Source: an uncultured Candidatus Saccharibacteria bacterium
GTDB taxonomy: Bacteria > Patescibacteriota > Minisyncoccia > Minisyncoccales > PWPS01
DNA length: 34,566 bases
Direction of reading: 5' to 3'
NCBI GenBank assembly: GCA_964591185.1
Contig: CAZPZV010000003.1
Location: 9,164-43,729, forward strand
Made by a program: the position numbers and the translations under genes
Shown: piece after piece, positions 3,575 to 32,247 of the stretch
How positions within the stretch are numbered: position 1 is the stretch's first letter
Layout of the letters: each line of letters starts with the position of its first letter
The notes under the pieces: generated by a model
The model's input: only the letters and a program-made list of their open reading frames with translations
Told to the model about the DNA's origin: nothing
The model's database searches: none

Positions 3575-4141
3575 CTATGAAAAAAGTTTTTTGGAAACCT
3601 CAACTTCCAGATCTTCTTGTATTGCGGACATTAATGATTCAAATGATAAATCGTGATGCATTGAATCGTCGAAGAGTATAAAACCTCCGCAGATGTCATC
3701 AGTTTCCTTTACAGAAACGGGGAGTGCTATGTCTTTTATAATCCTCTCCGAGACTTCTTTTCTTTTTTTAGGAACAAGACACTCACCTTTAAACTCTCTG
3801 TCTATATTCTTTTCCAAGAAGCTTTTCATTAAAGAGTAATACTCATCATCTGTAATGTTTTTTAGCTGGTTTAGCGTTTCACAAAAAACTTTATCTACAA
3901 ACTCTCTTTTTATCTTTTCTTTTTCTTCACGGAAAAATCTGTTTAGCTTTGAGATGTTTTTCTCTTTTTCTTTTCTTTTCATCTCCCCTAAAGAAGAGTG
4001 ATGCTCTTCTTTAATTCTCTTTATTTTTTCTTCATAACTTTTCTTTAATGAACTTACTTCATCATCTCTTTCTCTTAAAATATCTTTTATTTTAAGCTGT
4101 GCATCGCTCTCTATTTTTTCTAACAGATCTTCTTTTGACAT
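3575..4141 (-). CDS. atpE: A/V-type ATPase subunit E (peripheral stalk)
   Basis: 188 aa, with a long K/E-rich N-terminal helix and a globular C-terminus. It occupies the expected position in the operon. Confidence 0.8.
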   Translation of the reverse strand: MSKEDLLEKIESDAQLKIKDILRERDDEVSSLKKSYEEKIKRIKEEHHSSLGEMKRKEKEKNISKLNRFFREEKEKIKREFVDKVFCETLNQLKNITDDEYYSLMKSFLEKNIDREFKGECLVPKKRKEVSERIIKDIALPVSVKETDDICGGFILFDDSMHHDLSFESLMSAIQEDLEVEVSKKLFS

Positions 4142-15707: not shown

Positions 15708-15782
15708 TGGAGCGGGAGACGGGGATCGAACCCGCACTCACTTGCTTGGAAGGCAAGGGTTTTGCCATTAAACTACTCCCGC
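15708..15782 (-). tRNA. tRNA-Gly (anticodon UCC), CCA encoded
   Basis: Acceptor GCGGGAG/CTCCCGC, anticodon arm CTTGC-CTTCCAA-GCAAG, T arm GCGGG-TTCGATC-CCCGT, discriminator T followed by an encoded CCA. The length is 75 nt. Confidence 0.9.
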
Positions 15783-16549: not shown

Positions 16550-16554
16550 CTTTG

Positions 16555-16627
16555 TCGGGGTACTCGGATTCGAACCGAGACTAAATCCTCCCAAAGGACT
16601 CGTGCTAGCCGTTAACACTATACCCCG
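16555..16627 (-). tRNA. tRNA-Pro (anticodon UGG)
   Basis: Acceptor CGGGGTA/TACCCCG (C1:G72), anticodon arm AGTCC-TTTGGGA-GGATT, T arm CTCGG-TTCGAAT-CCGAG. The length is 73 nt and no CCA is encoded. Confidence 0.9.
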
Positions 16628-23311: not shown

Positions 23312-23842
23312 ATGATACACCATCTTAAAGGAGAAGTAACAGAAAAAGAAAAAGATTACGTTGTTGTTGATGTAAACGGGGTTGGTTACAAGGTTTTCGT
23401 TTCCCCGGACACGGACATATCGGGAAAGGTTACCCTTTTTTGTTACACGCACAGTACGGGAAAAGACACCTACCTTTACGGATTTAAAGACAGAGAGAAT
23501 CTTTCCTTTTTTAAAGATCTTTTAAAAATATCGGGAATCGGTCCCAAAGCGGCACTGCAGCTGGCTTCTATCGCTCCCATGGAAGAGTTTAAGCAAGCGG
23601 TGGAAAGAGAAGACAAGGAGGTGATAAAAAAGATAATGAAGATAGGCAAAAAGAAAGGAGAAAGAGTTGTTTTTGAGGTTGCCAGAAGGAGTGTGAAAGT
23701 GGAAAAAGATGATGCCTTTGAGGTGTTGAGAGGTCTTGGTTTTGAGAGCAAGGACATTGAGGCGGTTCTGGAGAATGTGTCGCAAGACAAAGGAAAAGAA
23801 GAAAGAGTAACGGAGGCGTTAAAGCTTCTTCACAAGAAATGA
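23312..23842 (+). CDS. ruvA: Holliday junction DNA helicase subunit RuvA
   Basis: MIHHLKGEVTEKEKDYVVVDVNGVGYKVFVS (OB domain) and the HhH region ISGIGPKAALQL are present. The length is 176 aa. Confidence 0.9.
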   Translation: MIHHLKGEVTEKEKDYVVVDVNGVGYKVFVSPDTDISGKVTLFCYTHSTGKDTYLYGFKDRENLSFFKDLLKISGIGPKAALQLASIAPMEEFKQAVEREDKEVIKKIMKIGKKKGERVVFEVARRSVKVEKDDAFEVLRGLGFESKDIEAVLENVSQDKGKEERVTEALKLLHKK

Positions 23843-26080: not shown

Positions 26081-26925
26081 ATATACTACTAAAGATATTT
26101 TTAACGGAGGCGTTTCTTTTTAGTGCTACTATTCTCTTGGGAATAAGTGTTGCTTTGCGCTTAGACCATCTGGTCGCACACGCCTCCGATGGAGTGAGTA
26201 CACCGATGACAGTCGGTGTTATTCTTTTCTATGTTCTTGTTGCCACCTTGCTGGTGCTCTTTTTTTTGAAAAAAGGAGCGGGGCTCTTTCTTCGTTTCCT
26301 GCTTCTTTTCTCTGTCTTTGTCGGAGGATGGATAACACTGATACCTTTCTTGGGAGAGTACGCTCTACTCTTTTTGCTGCTACTCCTCTTTCTTTTAATT
26401 AAAAAACCGCTGGTTGTCGTTCACAACATATGTATCATCATCGCTATTGCCGGAGCGGGAGCGGTAGTCGGCATCTCTCTTACTCCTTTCATGGTCATTC
26501 TTTTAGCTGCTTTCCTTTCCGTGTACGATGTTATCGCTGTCTACAAAACAAAGCACATGGTAAAGATGGCCGAAGGAATGGTAAAGAGCAAGTCTATCTT
26601 AGGGATAGTCATACCTTTTCAAATAAAGGATCTTTTTCTTGATCTTAAAAAGACGGATGTTCAAGGAAGGTTTATGATACTTGGTGGAGGGGATATAATG
26701 ATACCTCTTCTTTTGTGTGTCGCCTTTCTCTCACAGGGAGTAGTTTACTCTTTAGTGATTTTTGCTTTTTCCTTGATGGGACTGGCTTTTAGTTTTATTC
26801 TTTTTATTTCTCCGGAAACAAAGCGACCCATTCCCGCTCTTCCGCCAATCGTTTTTATGCTCACTTTTGGCTATATAATACTAGAGGTCTTTAATCATGT
26901 AGCTTCTTTTTCTCCGGTAGCCTAA
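26077..26925 (+). CDS. Presenilin / signal-peptide-peptidase-like intramembrane aspartyl protease (A22 family, PSH-like)
   Basis: A polytopic membrane protein carrying the three signature motifs in order: SVYDVIAVY (YD), LGGGDIMIP (GxGD) and PIPALPP (PAL). I prefer the GTG start at 26077, which overlaps the upstream stop (GTGA). Confidence 0.75.
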   Translation: MNILLKIFLTEAFLFSATILLGISVALRLDHLVAHASDGVSTPMTVGVILFYVLVATLLVLFFLKKGAGLFLRFLLLFSVFVGGWITLIPFLGEYALLFLLLLLFLLIKKPLVVVHNICIIIAIAGAGAVVGISLTPFMVILLAAFLSVYDVIAVYKTKHMVKMAEGMVKSKSILGIVIPFQIKDLFLDLKKTDVQGRFMILGGGDIMIPLLLCVAFLSQGVVYSLVIFAFSLMGLAFSFILFISPETKRPIPALPPIVFMLTFGYIILEVFNHVASFSPVA

Positions 26926-28383
26926 ACTTCTCCAGTACTCTCTCGCTCCCACTCCGGAGATTACAGCGATACGTTTTTTACCTCTCTTTTTTGCCTCTTC
27001 TTCTGCCATCTTTACAAGCTCTTTTCCCATGCCCCGGTGTTGGGCGGCATCTTCGCTTTTCTTTTTTAAATAAAGTTGTTGTCCGTAGGTGTGTAGTTCC
27101 CTTATCATCCCTGCGTCCTTTATTATACACCTCTCCGAGAAGCGCAGGCGCAGCAGGGCGCAGATCTTTTCTTTTGTTTTTATGGTAAGAAAAACTTCTT
27201 CTCCTCTTGATGCAGTGTAAACAATCTTTTCTTTTCTTGTTGATGTTATCAGCTCATTTTTTACTTCGTTGCAACGGATGCAAGCACAATTCTCTTTTTG
27301 CAGCATCTCTCTGATGTTGGATATCTTTGATCCTCCGGCGATACTGTTTGAAGGTATGTCGCGGAAAAGTCTTTGGATGCGCACGTAAGGGGGAATCACT
27401 TCTCTTTTAATCTTTTTTAGTACCCTTAAAAGGTCTTTATCGGAAAGAGGAGTATACTCTCCTTTTTTGTATATCTTGTAAAGAGGGGCTTCCTTTATCA
27501 CCAGACAAGGGTATATCTTTAAAAAGTCAGGACGGTAAGCGGGATTACTGAAAAGGCGTTTAAACGTAAGATAGTCTTTTTTTAGACTGCTTCCGGGAAG
27601 GTTGAGCATCACCTGATGGCAGACTTTAAAGCCGGCATCCTTTAGTAGTCTTGTTGCCTTTTTGGTTTCTTTTTGTGTGTGTCCTCTTTTGCACTTTTGA
27701 AGAACATCGTCAAACAAACTTTGCACTCCCAGCTCAACCATAGTCACGCCCATGTTGCGCAACCTGATAATCTCTTCTTTATTGATGAAGTCGGGACGTG
27801 TTTCTATGGAAAGGCAAACAATGCGGTGGTCTGCTGTTTCGTTCTTTTTTTGAGCTTCCTTTAAAGAAGAACTCTTCTTTTTGTTACAGGCATCAAAGCA
27901 GTCTTTGATAAACTTTTCTTGGTACTCTTTAGGGTAGTAGGACCAGGTGCCTCCGACGATACGCAGTTCTATCTTGTTTGTGGGGTGTCCTGTTTCCCGC
28001 AGAGAGTTGATTCTTGCTTTCATCTGTCTTTTGGCGCTGTATTCGGTAAGTATGGCGCGCATAACCGCCGGCTCGTTTTTAAGATAGCTTTTGGGGGCGT
28101 CTTTTTGCAGGGGACAGAAAACACACTCTCCGGGACAAGGAAAGGGCTTGGTGAGAACGGATATGTTTACCACTCCGGAAAGAGATCTCACAGGGCGCGT
28201 TTTTAATGTGTTTATTACCCCCTCGTCTTTTCCTCCTTTTTTGTGGTAATATCGAAGTACGCTTACATTAGTAGGCATGGGTAAGCGGTGTTTTTTGGAA
28301 AGATCTCTTTTCGCTTTGGAAAGCTCTTCCGGCGAAAGATCTCTTTCCTCCAGTATTTTTATTATCTCTTTTTCTATTTTCAT
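26881..28383 (-). CDS. elp3: Elp3-type radical-SAM / GNAT acetyltransferase (tRNA U34 cm5-forming enzyme homologue)
   Basis: The radical-SAM cluster motif CPGECVFCP lies near the N-terminus, a TIM-barrel-like middle region follows, and the C-terminal GNAT motif is QHRGMGKELVKMAEEEAKKRG. I prefer the ATG at 28383 (MKIEKEII...); the track start at 28416 is a TTG. Confidence 0.85.
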   Translation of the reverse strand: MKIEKEIIKILEERDLSPEELSKAKRDLSKKHRLPMPTNVSVLRYYHKKGGKDEGVINTLKTRPVRSLSGVVNISVLTKPFPCPGECVFCPLQKDAPKSYLKNEPAVMRAILTEYSAKRQMKARINSLRETGHPTNKIELRIVGGTWSYYPKEYQEKFIKDCFDACNKKKSSSLKEAQKKNETADHRIVCLSIETRPDFINKEEIIRLRNMGVTMVELGVQSLFDDVLQKCKRGHTQKETKKATRLLKDAGFKVCHQVMLNLPGSSLKKDYLTFKRLFSNPAYRPDFLKIYPCLVIKEAPLYKIYKKGEYTPLSDKDLLRVLKKIKREVIPPYVRIQRLFRDIPSNSIAGGSKISNIREMLQKENCACIRCNEVKNELITSTRKEKIVYTASRGEEVFLTIKTKEKICALLRLRFSERCIIKDAGMIRELHTYGQQLYLKKKSEDAAQHRGMGKELVKMAEEEAKKRGKKRIAVISGVGAREYWRSLGYRRKRSYMIKDL

Positions 28384-29038
28384 GAGAAAACGCAAAGCGG
28401 ATAAAATAATTGCCAAGTTGCGCGAGGATTATAACTCTGTTGCCACTTCCTTTTCAAGGTCAAAGAACATTCTTTGGACGGAGTTAGAGTTTCTTTTCCG
28501 TTACGCGGAAAAAGGTGAAAAGGTGCTTGATGTGGGTTGCGGTAATGGACGCTTCTCTCGTTATCTGGAAGAGACAGAGTATCTTGGTTTGGATTTTTCC
28601 GAAAACCTCATTACGGAAGCAAAGAAGCTTTTCCCGCAAAAAAGATTTCTTCTTGGCAACGCTCTTTCTCTTCCTTTCGAGGATAGTAGCTTTGATAAGG
28701 TTTATGCCATTGCTCTTATTCATCATATTCCTTTAGAGGAGTACAGAGTGAAGGCGTTGCAAGAGATGTACAGGGTATTAAAACCCGGAGGCATGGTTTT
28801 TCTTACCGCTTGGAAGAGAAAAAGAAAGGGTTTGCGTTGGAGTCAAGTTTTGCGCTTCTTTTCTTTTTCCGATGTAAGTATAACCTTTAATGGGCGGGAA
28901 CGCTACTATCATCTGTTTAAAGAACAAGAGCTTTCAGAGATAGCGGAAAAGGCGGGATTTGTTGTTATGGAAGAAGGGGTGGTGAAAAGAAAAAAGTTTG
29001 GTAACTTCTATCTTATTGCCCGGAAAGAAGTTGTTTAA
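28382..29038 (+). CDS. Class I SAM-dependent methyltransferase, Trm9/ALKBH8-MT-like
   Basis: Motif I is VLDVGCGNG. The N-terminal YNSVATSFSRSKNILW, plus AIALIHHIP..R and RYYHLFKEQEL, resemble Trm9. I prefer the ATG at 28382 (MRKRKADK...), which places motif I about 50 residues in. Confidence 0.75.
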   Translation: MRKRKADKIIAKLREDYNSVATSFSRSKNILWTELEFLFRYAEKGEKVLDVGCGNGRFSRYLEETEYLGLDFSENLITEAKKLFPQKRFLLGNALSLPFEDSSFDKVYAIALIHHIPLEEYRVKALQEMYRVLKPGGMVFLTAWKRKRKGLRWSQVLRFFSFSDVSITFNGRERYYHLFKEQELSEIAEKAGFVVMEEGVVKRKKFGNFYLIARKEVV

Positions 29039-29054
29039 GGAGATTGTTTTGTGT

Positions 29055-29348
29055 ATGTGTGAAAAAGAGCTAAAAGAGTTCATAGAAAAAAGAAAATACT
29101 TTTTCTGGTGGGTGAAGGATCCGCAGAATTTAGGCAAAGAGTCCGTTGTGGAGGCTACTTTGAATTATGGTAACTGGGATGACGTGCAAGAGTTGATTTA
29201 TATAATGGGCATAGAGAAGGTGGCTCGCATATTTAGAGAAAGATCAAAAGAATCTTCGGTGGGACGTCAAAATTACGATAAAAAAACAAAAAATTATTTT
29301 AATTTATATTTCAATGAACATCTTTCCACGAAAAGAAATTCTCACTGA
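29055..29348 (+). CDS. Small helical protein, putative partner (antitoxin-like) of the downstream nucleotidyltransferase
   Basis: MCEKELKEFIEKRKYFFWWVKDPQNLGKESVVEATLNYGNWDDVQELIYIMG... AAGGAG lies at 29037-29042. An in-frame TTG at 29049 has better SD spacing (6 nt) and is an alternative start. The ORF overlaps the next gene by 35 nt. Confidence 0.5.
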   Translation: MCEKELKEFIEKRKYFFWWVKDPQNLGKESVVEATLNYGNWDDVQELIYIMGIEKVARIFRERSKESSVGRQNYDKKTKNYFNLYFNEHLSTKRNSH

Positions 29349-29940
29349 TCAACAAACAGAGCTGCTTTCTTTGGTGAAAAAGTTCAAAGAAGAATTTATT
29401 CTGGTGGGAGAAACGGCCATTGCTTTACATCTTGGCCACAGAAGATCCATAGATTTTGATTTATTTTCCCAAGAGGAGTTTGGAAACAAGAAAATCAGAA
29501 ATGCAATTATCGGGGAAGGGTGGAATATAGAAATGGTTTTTAGGGACGAAAAGGACTGCTTTACTCTTTTGATCAATGGGGTGCAAGTAACCTTTTTTTA
29601 CTACCCCTTTCAAATACATGCGAAAGAGGATTTTGGCGAAGCAAAGGTTCCCGATCTTCTTACTCTGGGGGCCATGAAAGCATATGCCTTGGGAAGAAGA
29701 GCCAAGTGGAAGGATTATGTGGATCTTTGTTTTATCTTTCAGAAACATGGTTCTGTAAAACCGGTTATAGATGAAGCTAAAAACATCTTCAAGAACGAGT
29801 TTAATGAAAACCTTTTTCGTAAGCAGCTAGCTTATTTCGAAGACATAAACTACGAAGAACAAGTTGACTTCCTTTCCGGATTCGAGGTGAGCAAAGAGGA
29901 AGTAAAAAAGAAATTGACCGATTTTGCCATAGATGCTTGA
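29314..29940 (+). CDS. Nucleotidyltransferase, AbiEii/DUF1814-like (type IV toxin / abortive-infection family)
   Basis: LVGETAIALHLGHRRSIDFDLFS and KAYALGRRAKWKDYVDLCFI match the AbiEii-type NTase signature blocks (GGTAL..HR.S.D.D.F and K..RD..D). The length is 208 aa. Confidence 0.65.
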   Translation: MNIFPRKEILTDQQTELLSLVKKFKEEFILVGETAIALHLGHRRSIDFDLFSQEEFGNKKIRNAIIGEGWNIEMVFRDEKDCFTLLINGVQVTFFYYPFQIHAKEDFGEAKVPDLLTLGAMKAYALGRRAKWKDYVDLCFIFQKHGSVKPVIDEAKNIFKNEFNENLFRKQLAYFEDINYEEQVDFLSGFEVSKEEVKKKLTDFAIDA

Positions 29941-31874: not shown

Positions 31875-32228
31875 GGGGATGACTTGATTCGACGGGACCC
31901 TTTGATCTAAGCGGTGCAAGCGGAGAGCAGACTCCTTAAACATGCAAACATCAAATAAGTGCCAACTTATTCGAAAAAGAACCTGCATTAGCATACGCTT
32001 AATGCACATCTTCCCCGCTCACTCCTCATAAGCGGATGAAGGTGCCATAAAATGAGGATAGGGATTTAAAGTTTCGTTTCTTCTCTTTAAATCTCGAAAA
32101 AATAAAAAGATACAAAGCAAGAGCGTTTTTGTCTGGTTTTTCAGCGCTTGCTTTCATCTAAACCGGAACAAGCTTGTAGAACTGTTTGGATTAAGTTTCC
32201 GGACGGGAGCTCACCCTCCCCATCTCCA
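31875..32228 (+). ncRNA. ssrA: tmRNA (SsrA), about 354 nt
   Basis: The 5' end GGGGATGACTTGATTCGACGGG is the canonical tmRNA start. The 3' end CATCTCC-A pairs with it to form an acceptor stem containing G3:U70. The internal tag frame is GCC AAC TTA TTC GAA AAA GAA CCT GCA TTA GCA TAC GCT TAA (31961-32002), preceded by AAATAAGT as in known tmRNAs. Confidence 0.9.
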
Positions 32229-32247
32229 CAAAATTAAAAAGAGGATT

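Follow-up and report, generated by a model that had tools for sequence, protein, structure and literature searches.

Within a 34,566-nucleotide (nt) stretch of DNA from an uncultured Candidatus Saccharibacteria bacterium (GenBank assembly GCA_964591185.1, contig CAZPZV010000003.1, positions 9,164 to 43,729), referred to here in its entirety as the window, two genes stand head to head with overlapping start codons: a minus-strand gene predicted to encode Elp3, a protein with radical S-adenosylmethionine (SAM) and GNAT domains, and a plus-strand gene whose predicted product resembles the tRNA methyltransferase Trm9. The window is bacterial in origin, as its gene neighbours and transfer-messenger RNA (tmRNA) attest. 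It carries genes for RuvA, DNA polymerase III delta, a Mur ligase and GreA; we read one conserved open reading frame (ORF) as IF3, with adjoining ORFs that resemble ribosomal proteins L35 and L20; and the tmRNA lies at 31875-32231 (+), scoring 115.7 bits against an Rfam gathering score of 47, although an ARAGORN run left it unreported. The nearest relatives of the window are Patescibacteria metagenome bins. A recent horizontal transfer of the pair was considered and rejected, since the GC contents of the two genes, 0.43 and 0.41 against 0.40 for the window, give no compositional signal.

A first-pass annotation, made from the letters of this DNA, had proposed that the two genes form a minimal wobble-uridine modification module, and both ORFs lie where it placed them, with all of the motifs that it quoted. 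In Elp3 these are CPGECVFCP (residues 83-91) and QHRGMGKELV (448-457), and in the methyltransferase VLDVGCGNG (48-56), YNSVATSFSRSKNILW (17-32), AIALIHHIP (109-117) and RYYHLFKEQEL (174-184). Direct reading of bases 28381-28384 confirms that both start codons fall within a palindromic CATG and that no intergenic DNA separates the genes: the plus-strand ATG occupies 28382-28384, the minus-strand ATG is the complement of 28381-28383, and two bases are common to both. Were the upstream alternatives used instead, TTG 28416 for Elp3 (ORF 26881-28416) and ATG 28277 for the methyltransferase (ORF 28277-29038), the ORFs would overlap in antisense by 140 nt, as had been estimated. The features of the locus are collected in Table 1.

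Table 1. Features of the Elp3-methyltransferase locus, in window coordinates
Feature	Position	Strand	Basis or remark
Predicted Elp3 gene, radical-SAM and GNAT, 500 aa	26881..28383	-	TIGR01211, Pfam and PDB matches
Predicted acetyl-CoA loop of Elp3 (GNAT motif A), QHRGMG, residues 448-453	27025..27042	-	Nearly invariant in Elp3 alignment
Predicted zinc motif of Elp3, CxCxxC, C366/C368/C371 (CACIRC)	27271..27288	-	Motif found in sequence
Predicted radical-SAM (iron-sulfur) cluster motif of Elp3, CPGECVFC, C83-x3-C87-x2-C90	28114..28137	-	Three Cys invariant in 25 aligned Elp3 proteins
Candidate methyltransferase -10 element, TATTAT, in Elp3 codons 7-8	28360..28365	+	22 nt before ATG; weak, no good -35
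Palindromic CATG holding both start codons	28381..28384		Read from sequence
Putative Trm9-like class I SAM methyltransferase gene, 218 aa	28382..29038	+	Methyltransf_11, YlTrm9 5cm2_Z match, Elp3 linkage
Predicted Elp3 promoter in methyltransferase codons 16-26	28428..28457	-	-35 TTGAAA 28457-28452, 18-nt spacer, -10 TATAAT 28433-28428
Predicted SAM-binding motif I of methyltransferase, VLDVGCGNG, residues 48-56	28523..28549	+	D50 and G52 invariant in alignment
RYYH motif of methyltransferase, R174/Y175/Y176/H177	28901..28912	+	Matches ScTrm9 R241 and Y243; R in 40/41, Y176 in 27/41 relatives

The minus-strand gene is predicted to encode a complete Elp3 in which the radical-SAM, acetyl-CoA and zinc sites are intact. 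It scores 487.5 bits against TIGR01211 (cut-off 350) over model positions 7-522 of 522, contains the Pfam domains Radical_SAM, Radical_SAM_C and GNAT, and matches the ELP3_N model at residues 5-67. Its best PDB match is the archaeal MinElp3 (6ia8, E 1e-115), and it also matches the Dehalococcoides enzyme DmcElp3 (5l7j, E 4e-106). Residues K137, K253 and Y483 align to K150, K266 and Y517 of MinElp3 and are conserved in the 25 aligned Elp3 proteins; MinElp3 mutants at these positions lose tRNA-induced acetyl-CoA hydrolysis (PMC6367351). A three-cysteine zinc motif in the linker is a feature of prokaryotic Elp3, and the N-terminal extension of MinElp3 drives tRNA binding and activity (PMC6367351); the window Elp3 has such an extension, of approximately 65 residues. 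The full Elp3 architecture claimed by the first-pass annotation is thus borne out by the TIGR01211 score, the Pfam domains and the retained catalytic residues, and the SAM and acetyl-CoA sites, on whose loss that proposal was to fail, are both intact on alignment.

For the plus-strand gene, assignment to the Trm9-type methyltransferases is largely supported. The predicted protein matches Methyltransf_11 in Pfam (E 1.8e-24), and its best PDB sequence match is Yarrowia Trm9 (YlTrm9) from the Trm9-Trm112 complex (5cm2_Z, E 6.7e-17), in an alignment that spans residues 32-208 and takes in the RYYH motif and the C-terminal Asn; in this single-sequence search YlTrm9 scores 65 bits vs 59 for the next entry. 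An AlphaFold2 model (pLDDT 93) adopts a Rossmann-type fold, for which Foldseek also returns 5cm2_Z first (E 3e-18). In a database of 5.8 billion proteins, fungal Trm9/ALKBH8 proteins reach 97 bits at 93% coverage, vs approximately 63 bits and 60% coverage for UbiE/MenG, and the relatives found there are Patescibacteria proteins, some of which carry the labels TRM9 or ALKBH8 in JGI records. Alignment to fungal Trm9/ALKBH8 covers the full length of the family, at approximately 30% identity to fungal Trm9.

The residue-level comparison is more specific. The functional residues of Saccharomyces Trm9 (ScTrm9) were defined by mutagenesis and modelling in yeast, where R241A and Y243A lose activity, and H115/H116, R241, Y243 and N271 were proposed to hold the carboxylate and the uracil ring of 5-carboxymethyluridine (cm5U) (PMC4678810). 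Of ten ScTrm9 residues compared, the window protein retains eight and most relatives nine: Y17, D71, H114, H115, W144, R174, Y176 and N208 correspond to ScTrm9 Y18, D72, H115, H116, W145, R241, Y243 and N271. Apart from D71, which is invariant in the alignment together with D50 and G52, each of these residues recurs in 27-41 of 41 relatives, and in the Dehalococcoides and archaeal members as well. The likeness to Trm9 and to the methyltransferase domain of ALKBH8 noted at first pass is upheld by these residues, by the best match to 5cm2_Z in both sequence and fold, and by the ranking of fungal Trm9.

The decisive evidence that the two genes serve a shared pathway is their linkage across genomes. 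When 185,579 species genomes were scanned with the methyltransferase alignment and Elp3 was then located by tblastn, Elp3 lay within 10 kb at 43 of the 53 loci with a full-length methyltransferase match, 40 of them divergent and most immediately adjacent; at three of the ten full-length loci without Elp3, the upstream DNA is shorter than 1 kb. Among loci whose match was confined to the SAM-binding (Rossmann-fold) part, just 7 of 27 had Elp3 nearby. In the reverse direction, of the 80 top-ranking metagenomic Elp3 loci, 71 (70 of them divergent) carry the methyltransferase gene no more than 4 kb away, and four of the nine lacking it have no upstream DNA. Clustering of ORFs of at least 40 aa across 38 pair loci recovered Elp3 and the methyltransferase as the only conserved gene families, the other recurrent clusters being shadow ORFs inside Elp3. 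According to record titles, the hosts include many Patescibacteria lineages, Anaerolineales and other Chloroflexota, Fermentibacteria and WWE3.

The pair is also kept in other arrangements. In a Gracilibacteria locus (L013, 423-2643) Elp3 precedes the methyltransferase on one strand with 14 nt between them, and in a crenarchaeal locus (L025, 480-2250) the methyltransferase precedes Elp3, likewise on one strand, 65 nt apart; linkage therefore survives rearrangement. In Dehalococcoides mccartyi (locus L162, 4283-6380; CP019867.1, 563164-574543), a divergent gene for a 224-aa methyltransferase, 34% identical to the window protein (E 6e-26) and carrying the HH, W, PW, RYY and N signatures, lies 43 nt upstream of Elp3, and the intergenic region contains TATAAT. 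Genes for the tRNA-modification enzyme QueH and for a GNAT protein are found near this pair as well. Joint inheritance of the two genes in Patescibacteria, Chloroflexota (including Dehalococcoides) and other phyla best explains these distributions, and the co-occurrence in other genomes on which the first-pass proposal had staked itself is evident in both directions of search and in D. mccartyi. The accompanying statement that Elp3 is sporadic in bacteria, with Dehalococcoides as the known example, holds for Dehalococcoides, but bacterial Elp3 is not confined to that group.

We consider it probable that this module makes 5-methoxycarbonylmethyluridine at tRNA wobble position 34 (mcm5U34) by the two-step pathway of eukaryotes and archaea, the chemistry being deduced from sequence. 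In the first step, Elp3 would attach a carboxymethyl group to C5 of U34 by means of a SAM-derived radical and acetyl-CoA, yielding cm5U; we propose this step because the active site is intact and the reaction is known for the family. In the second, the Trm9-type methyltransferase would use SAM to methyl-esterify the carboxyl group of cm5U, yielding mcm5U, a step proposed on account of the Trm9 similarity, the conserved catalytic residues and the conserved linkage to Elp3. The first-pass annotation had further pointed to two U34 tRNAs encoded in the window as possible substrates. Both genes are present, tRNA-Gly(UCC) at 15708-15782 and tRNA-Pro(UGG) at 16554-16627, but they lie more than 10 kb from the pair and tRNAs of these types are present in every bacterium, and they were set aside as uninformative with respect to substrates.

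Several observations weigh against a Trm9 function and need to be set beside those above. Only generic models (Methyltransf_11 and its relatives) pass in Pfam, no NCBIfam model reaches its cut-off, and the libraries searched contain no curated Trm9-specific model; with matches that are generic or sub-threshold, Pfam and NCBIfam were not accepted as arbiters of Trm9 membership. The comparison with Trm9 and generic families that had been suggested at first pass favours Trm9 over UbiE, while among curated models only generic ones pass. The lead of Trm9 over other class I methyltransferases in Foldseek is small, and because folds of this class are too similar that ranking was not treated as decisive. 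In a search of the PDB with a bacterial-only profile, the uncharacterised PH0226 of Pyrococcus horikoshii (1ve3) scores 95 bits and an N-terminally truncated YlTrm9 scores 90 bits. PH0226 was rejected as a better relative, as it is without the Trp and the RYYH motif in the profile alignment; both it and 3sm3 of Methanosarcina mazei, which are uncharacterised archaeal methyltransferases from structural genomics, score as high as Trm9. Finally, two functional positions depart from the yeast enzyme. For ScTrm9 R29 a role in holding the cm5U carboxylate was proposed; the window protein has K28 at this position, where 40 of 41 relatives have Arg. The loop bearing W168, which was proposed to stack on a neighbouring base and whose W168A mutant is inactive in yeast (PMC4678810), is shortened and without Trp in the window's subclade.

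These departures, the substitution of Cys for Y176 in the Anaerolineales and Fermentibacteria members, the modest identity to fungal Trm9 and the failure of the bacterial profile to separate Trm9 from PH0226 all speak for an alternative in which the methyltransferase is coupled to Elp3 yet catalyses a non-Trm9 reaction, acting on another atom of the xm5U intermediate, on another anticodon-loop nucleotide or on Elp3 itself. We judge this alternative improbable. The residues kept from ScTrm9 include those proposed to hold the substrate, and most relatives carry the Arg at the R29 position together with the PW loop; the aligned relatives outside the window's subclade have either that loop or Phe for its Trp. 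Archaeal members of the methyltransferase family, moreover, adjoin Elp3, and archaeal Trm9 makes mcm5U (PMC6144793). Methyl esterification of cm5U thus remains the reaction that we prefer for the window enzyme.

A further point against that preference is the missing partner protein Trm112. Eukaryotic Trm9 needs Trm112, and Haloferax HvoTrm9 (HVO_1032) likewise needs it in vivo (PMC6144793). In the 38 pair loci, no third conserved family was found among ORFs of at least 40 aa that could be a linked Trm112; a Trm112 motif scan of the window was negative; and tblastn with approximate sequences of E. coli YcaR and yeast Trm112 as queries returned only unrelated Poribacteria loci and locus L079. 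The Poribacteria matches (E 3e-4 to 1e-3) are Trm112/YcaR-like ORFs at L047 11473-11577, L052 11398-11508, L054 11401-11511 and L057 7009-7125, which follow, at a distance of approximately 1.4 kb on the downstream side, another class I methyltransferase without Elp3 in its vicinity, an arrangement that fits published suggestions that bacterial Trm112 partners other methyltransferases. The contact surface offers a hint, and a hint only, that the bacterial enzyme probably works without Trm112: the positions of YlTrm9 V59 and F78, the central hydrophobic Trm112 contacts, are I, L or F in fungal members, whereas in the bacterial family the V59 position is K or R in 34 of 38 proteins and the F78 position is D, E, S, K or N in 35 of 38, the search for the partner itself having covered the window and the pair loci. 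The "minimal" character ascribed to the module at first pass, in the sense of a module without Trm112, is only hinted at.

The start-codon overlap is conserved and no accident. An in-frame CATG overlap is present in 33 of 118 divergent pairs, and in 71 of the 118 the starts lie no more than 30 nt apart; the methyltransferases of the CATG-overlap pairs are only approximately 35-57% identical to that of the window. Other divergent pairs within the window are separated by 150-350 nt, and in E. coli divergent overlaps account for 2 of 663 overlapping gene pairs (PMC4161906). We take both ATGs within the CATG to be genuine start codons because homology supports them, both in the starts of relatives and in the recurrence of the CATG itself. 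The Met encoded at 28382 is the first residue in all 40 aligned methyltransferase relatives, M1 and A6 being at least 90% conserved, and a gene caller predicted the identical 218-aa protein on another contig. On the Elp3 side, the CATG ATG is the sole start codon in the open Elp3 frame of loci L005, L008 and L012, and in L007 the sole candidate Elp3 ATG directly abuts the methyltransferase ATG.

It might nevertheless be supposed that the overlap is an illusion of annotation, with one or both proteins starting further downstream and ordinary intergenic DNA left between them. A public gene call on an identical contig does start an Elp3 fragment approximately 100 nt further in, no Shine-Dalgarno sequence precedes either ATG, and the first 16-20 residues of Elp3 fall outside the tblastn alignments to relatives. 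We regard this possibility as more doubtful still than a non-Trm9 reaction. Besides the conserved starts and the recurring geometry just described, the next Met in Elp3 is residue 35, and initiation there would lose most of the match to ELP3_N, a region linked to tRNA binding (PMC6367351). Most gene starts in the window are without a Shine-Dalgarno-like motif, so that its absence at the CATG starts carries little weight, and the idea that this absence is special to the pair was dropped. The weakest alternative bears on the pairing itself, namely that an unrelated small-molecule or rRNA methyltransferase of UbiE/MenG type sits beside Elp3 by chance: although UbiE/MenG, BioC and similar names head the NCBIfam and Pfam results (none of them reaching its cut-off) and some JGI relatives are labelled UbiE, this is close to refuted by a linkage (43/53 and 71/80 loci) that holds over several phyla while flanking genes vary, by UbiE-type matches that span only the Rossmann half of the protein, and by its Trm9-specific N- and C-terminal motifs.

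With no intergenic DNA, the first-pass annotation had reasoned, the promoter of each gene must lie inside its partner, and this expectation is supported for Elp3 by a predicted promoter in the methyltransferase gene and by its recurrence in relatives. In 11 of its 12 positions the TTGAAA-18-TATAAT sequence is identical to the consensus; it stands 50 nt ahead of the Elp3 ATG and is formed on the methyltransferase codons for D-Y-N...F-S-R; transcription would start near 28421 and give a leader of approximately 38 nt, antisense to methyltransferase codons 1-13. Across relatives, an exact antisense TATAAT on the D-Y-N codons occurs in 27 of 50 tight pairs vs none of eight pairs more than 120 nt apart. 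Of 23 D-Y-N tripeptides in tight pairs, 22 give the exact hexamer, which requires GAT-TAT-AAN, and -10-like hexamers upstream of Elp3 peak at -54 to -49 in 31 of the 71 tight loci. Upstream of the CATG, moreover, the Elp3 frame is ended by an in-frame stop that is the TAA within the antisense TATAAT (28429-28431), so that one hexamer would at once provide methyltransferase codons, the -10 box of Elp3 and the limit of the Elp3 frame. The same TAA occurs in L002, L003, L005, L008 and L012, always 49 nt past the methyltransferase start. AT-rich codon bias and shared ancestry could explain these counts in part.

For the methyltransferase the signals are less distinct. In addition to the candidate element in the window (Table 1), -10-like hexamers are enriched at -30 to -7 before the methyltransferase ATG, within the first Elp3 codons, in the 71 tight loci. 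Neither window ATG has a -10-like hexamer at -12 to -7, and leaderless transcription of both genes was rejected for this reason. At several window genes (e.g. the start at 23312 and those at 3575-4141) a TATAAT- or TATAAA-like box stops 6-7 nt short of the ATG, a sign that leaderless or Shine-Dalgarno-independent initiation may be frequent in the source organism. No RNA structure is evident in the predicted Elp3 leader (z = +0.9), and no Rfam element is found in the CATG/leader region.

Under the proposed layout, Elp3 would probably be transcribed from a promoter built of the methyltransferase's conserved D-Y-N...F-S codons and the methyltransferase probably from a -10 element in the first ~10 codons of Elp3; the two promoters would face each other, and the 5' ends of the two mRNAs would be complementary over approximately 50 nt. 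A far broader proposal can be offered only tentatively, as one that may well not hold in full: several phyla (Patescibacteria, Chloroflexota including Dehalococcoides, and Fermentibacteria) might make mcm5U34 by a Trm112-free two-gene module in which, in many cases, face-to-face promoters are buried in each other's coding sequence round a shared CATG, the Elp3 promoter is embedded in codons that specify the catalytic N-terminal helix of the methyltransferase, and antisense 5' ends tie the expression of both enzymes together.

Both enzyme families and the pathway are known; what we rate as new is a bacterial, probably Trm112-free two-gene version with a conserved head-to-head layout. The closest functional counterpart is the eukaryotic combination of Elongator with Trm9-Trm112 or ALKBH8-TRMT112, which uses the same two catalytic families in the same predicted order, from U34 through cm5U to mcm5U; the radical-SAM and acetyl-CoA residues of Elp3 and the eight ScTrm9 residues listed above are kept in the window pair. 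Unlike eukaryotic Elongator, however, the bacterial pair has beside it, in the 38 pair loci, no conserved gene that could replace Elp1, Elp2 or Elp4-6, and unlike eukaryotic Trm9 its methyltransferase has no linked Trm112, polar or charged residues at the V59/F78 positions and, in the window protein, K28 in place of R29 and a shortened W168 loop. The window genes, in addition, form a divergent pair in a bacterial chromosome.

The archaeal systems share other features with the window pair. Archaeal Elp3 is likewise a stand-alone enzyme with an N-terminal extension, and the best PDB match of the window Elp3 is an archaeal one. The Elp3 and Trm9 genes are physically clustered in Sulfolobus solfataricus (PMC6144793, PMC5372719), and Haloferax volcanii Trm9-Trm112 makes mcm5U (PMC6144793). 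In the archaeal locus L025, however, the genes are adjacent on the same strand whereas the window pair is head to head, and HvoTrm9 requires a Trm112 to which the window pair is not linked. One review limits archaeal Trm9 orthologues to Sulfolobales and Halobacteriales and leaves bacteria unmentioned (PMC5372719).

Among bacteria, DmcElp3 (PDB 5l7j, 6ia6) is likewise accompanied by a divergent Trm9-like methyltransferase. It is without the approximately 65-residue N-terminal extension, the alignment beginning at window residue 65, and its gene pair is separated by a short intergenic stretch of ordinary kind, which contains a TATAAT, in contrast to the start-codon overlap in the window. According to a 2020 review, no bacterial clade but Dehalococcoides has Elp3 and evidence for xcm5U in bacteria is lacking (PMC7663514), and a 2026 paper places Elp3 in "numerous bacteria". 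The well-known bacterial route to modified wobble uridines, the MnmE/MnmG (and MnmC) pathway to (c)mnm5U34, has the same target, C5 of U34, and presumably the same decoding role, but its enzymes and chemistry are unrelated to those of Elp3-Trm9. Our literature searches for bacterial Trm9, bacterial Elp3-Trm9 pairing, the start overlap, and Elp3 in the candidate phyla radiation (CPR)/Patescibacteria returned nothing relevant.

mcm5U has been treated as a eukaryotic wobble modification, and its demonstration in archaea dates back no further than 2018. In our sample nearly all bacterial Elp3 genes are paired with a Trm9 orthologue, including that of the cultivable and structurally studied D. mccartyi, and the pairing predicts mcm5U in the tRNA of that organism, a tRNA modification not yet reported in bacteria. 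The pair would also offer a simple two-gene system for reconstitution in E. coli and, if the bacterial enzyme functions free of Trm112, a soluble stand-alone Trm9; SAM- or tRNA-bound structures are hard to get for the eukaryotic Trm9 complex. Given the rarity of divergent overlaps, a conserved CATG overlap combined with a promoter that lies in the codons of a conserved protein motif would constitute an unusual case, and the CATG layout should be useful for studying coding and regulatory constraints that act on the same bases.

Further genes adjoin the pair on either side. On the Elp3 side, a plus-strand gene at 26050-26925 matches PF06550 (E 3e-13), the presenilin/signal-peptide-peptidase-type intramembrane proteases, with the YD, GxGD and PAL motifs visible, and its 3' end overlaps that of Elp3 tail to tail by 45 nt; this family is mainly archaeal, which makes its presence beside a bacterial Elp3 curious. 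On the methyltransferase side, in the region 29031-29940, a small ORF without a family match, which in the public gene call starts approximately 8 nt ahead of the methyltransferase stop, precedes an AbiEii-like nucleotidyltransferase toxin gene (29314-29940, +; PF08843), and the two may constitute a type IV toxin-antitoxin system immediately downstream of the Elp3-methyltransferase module.

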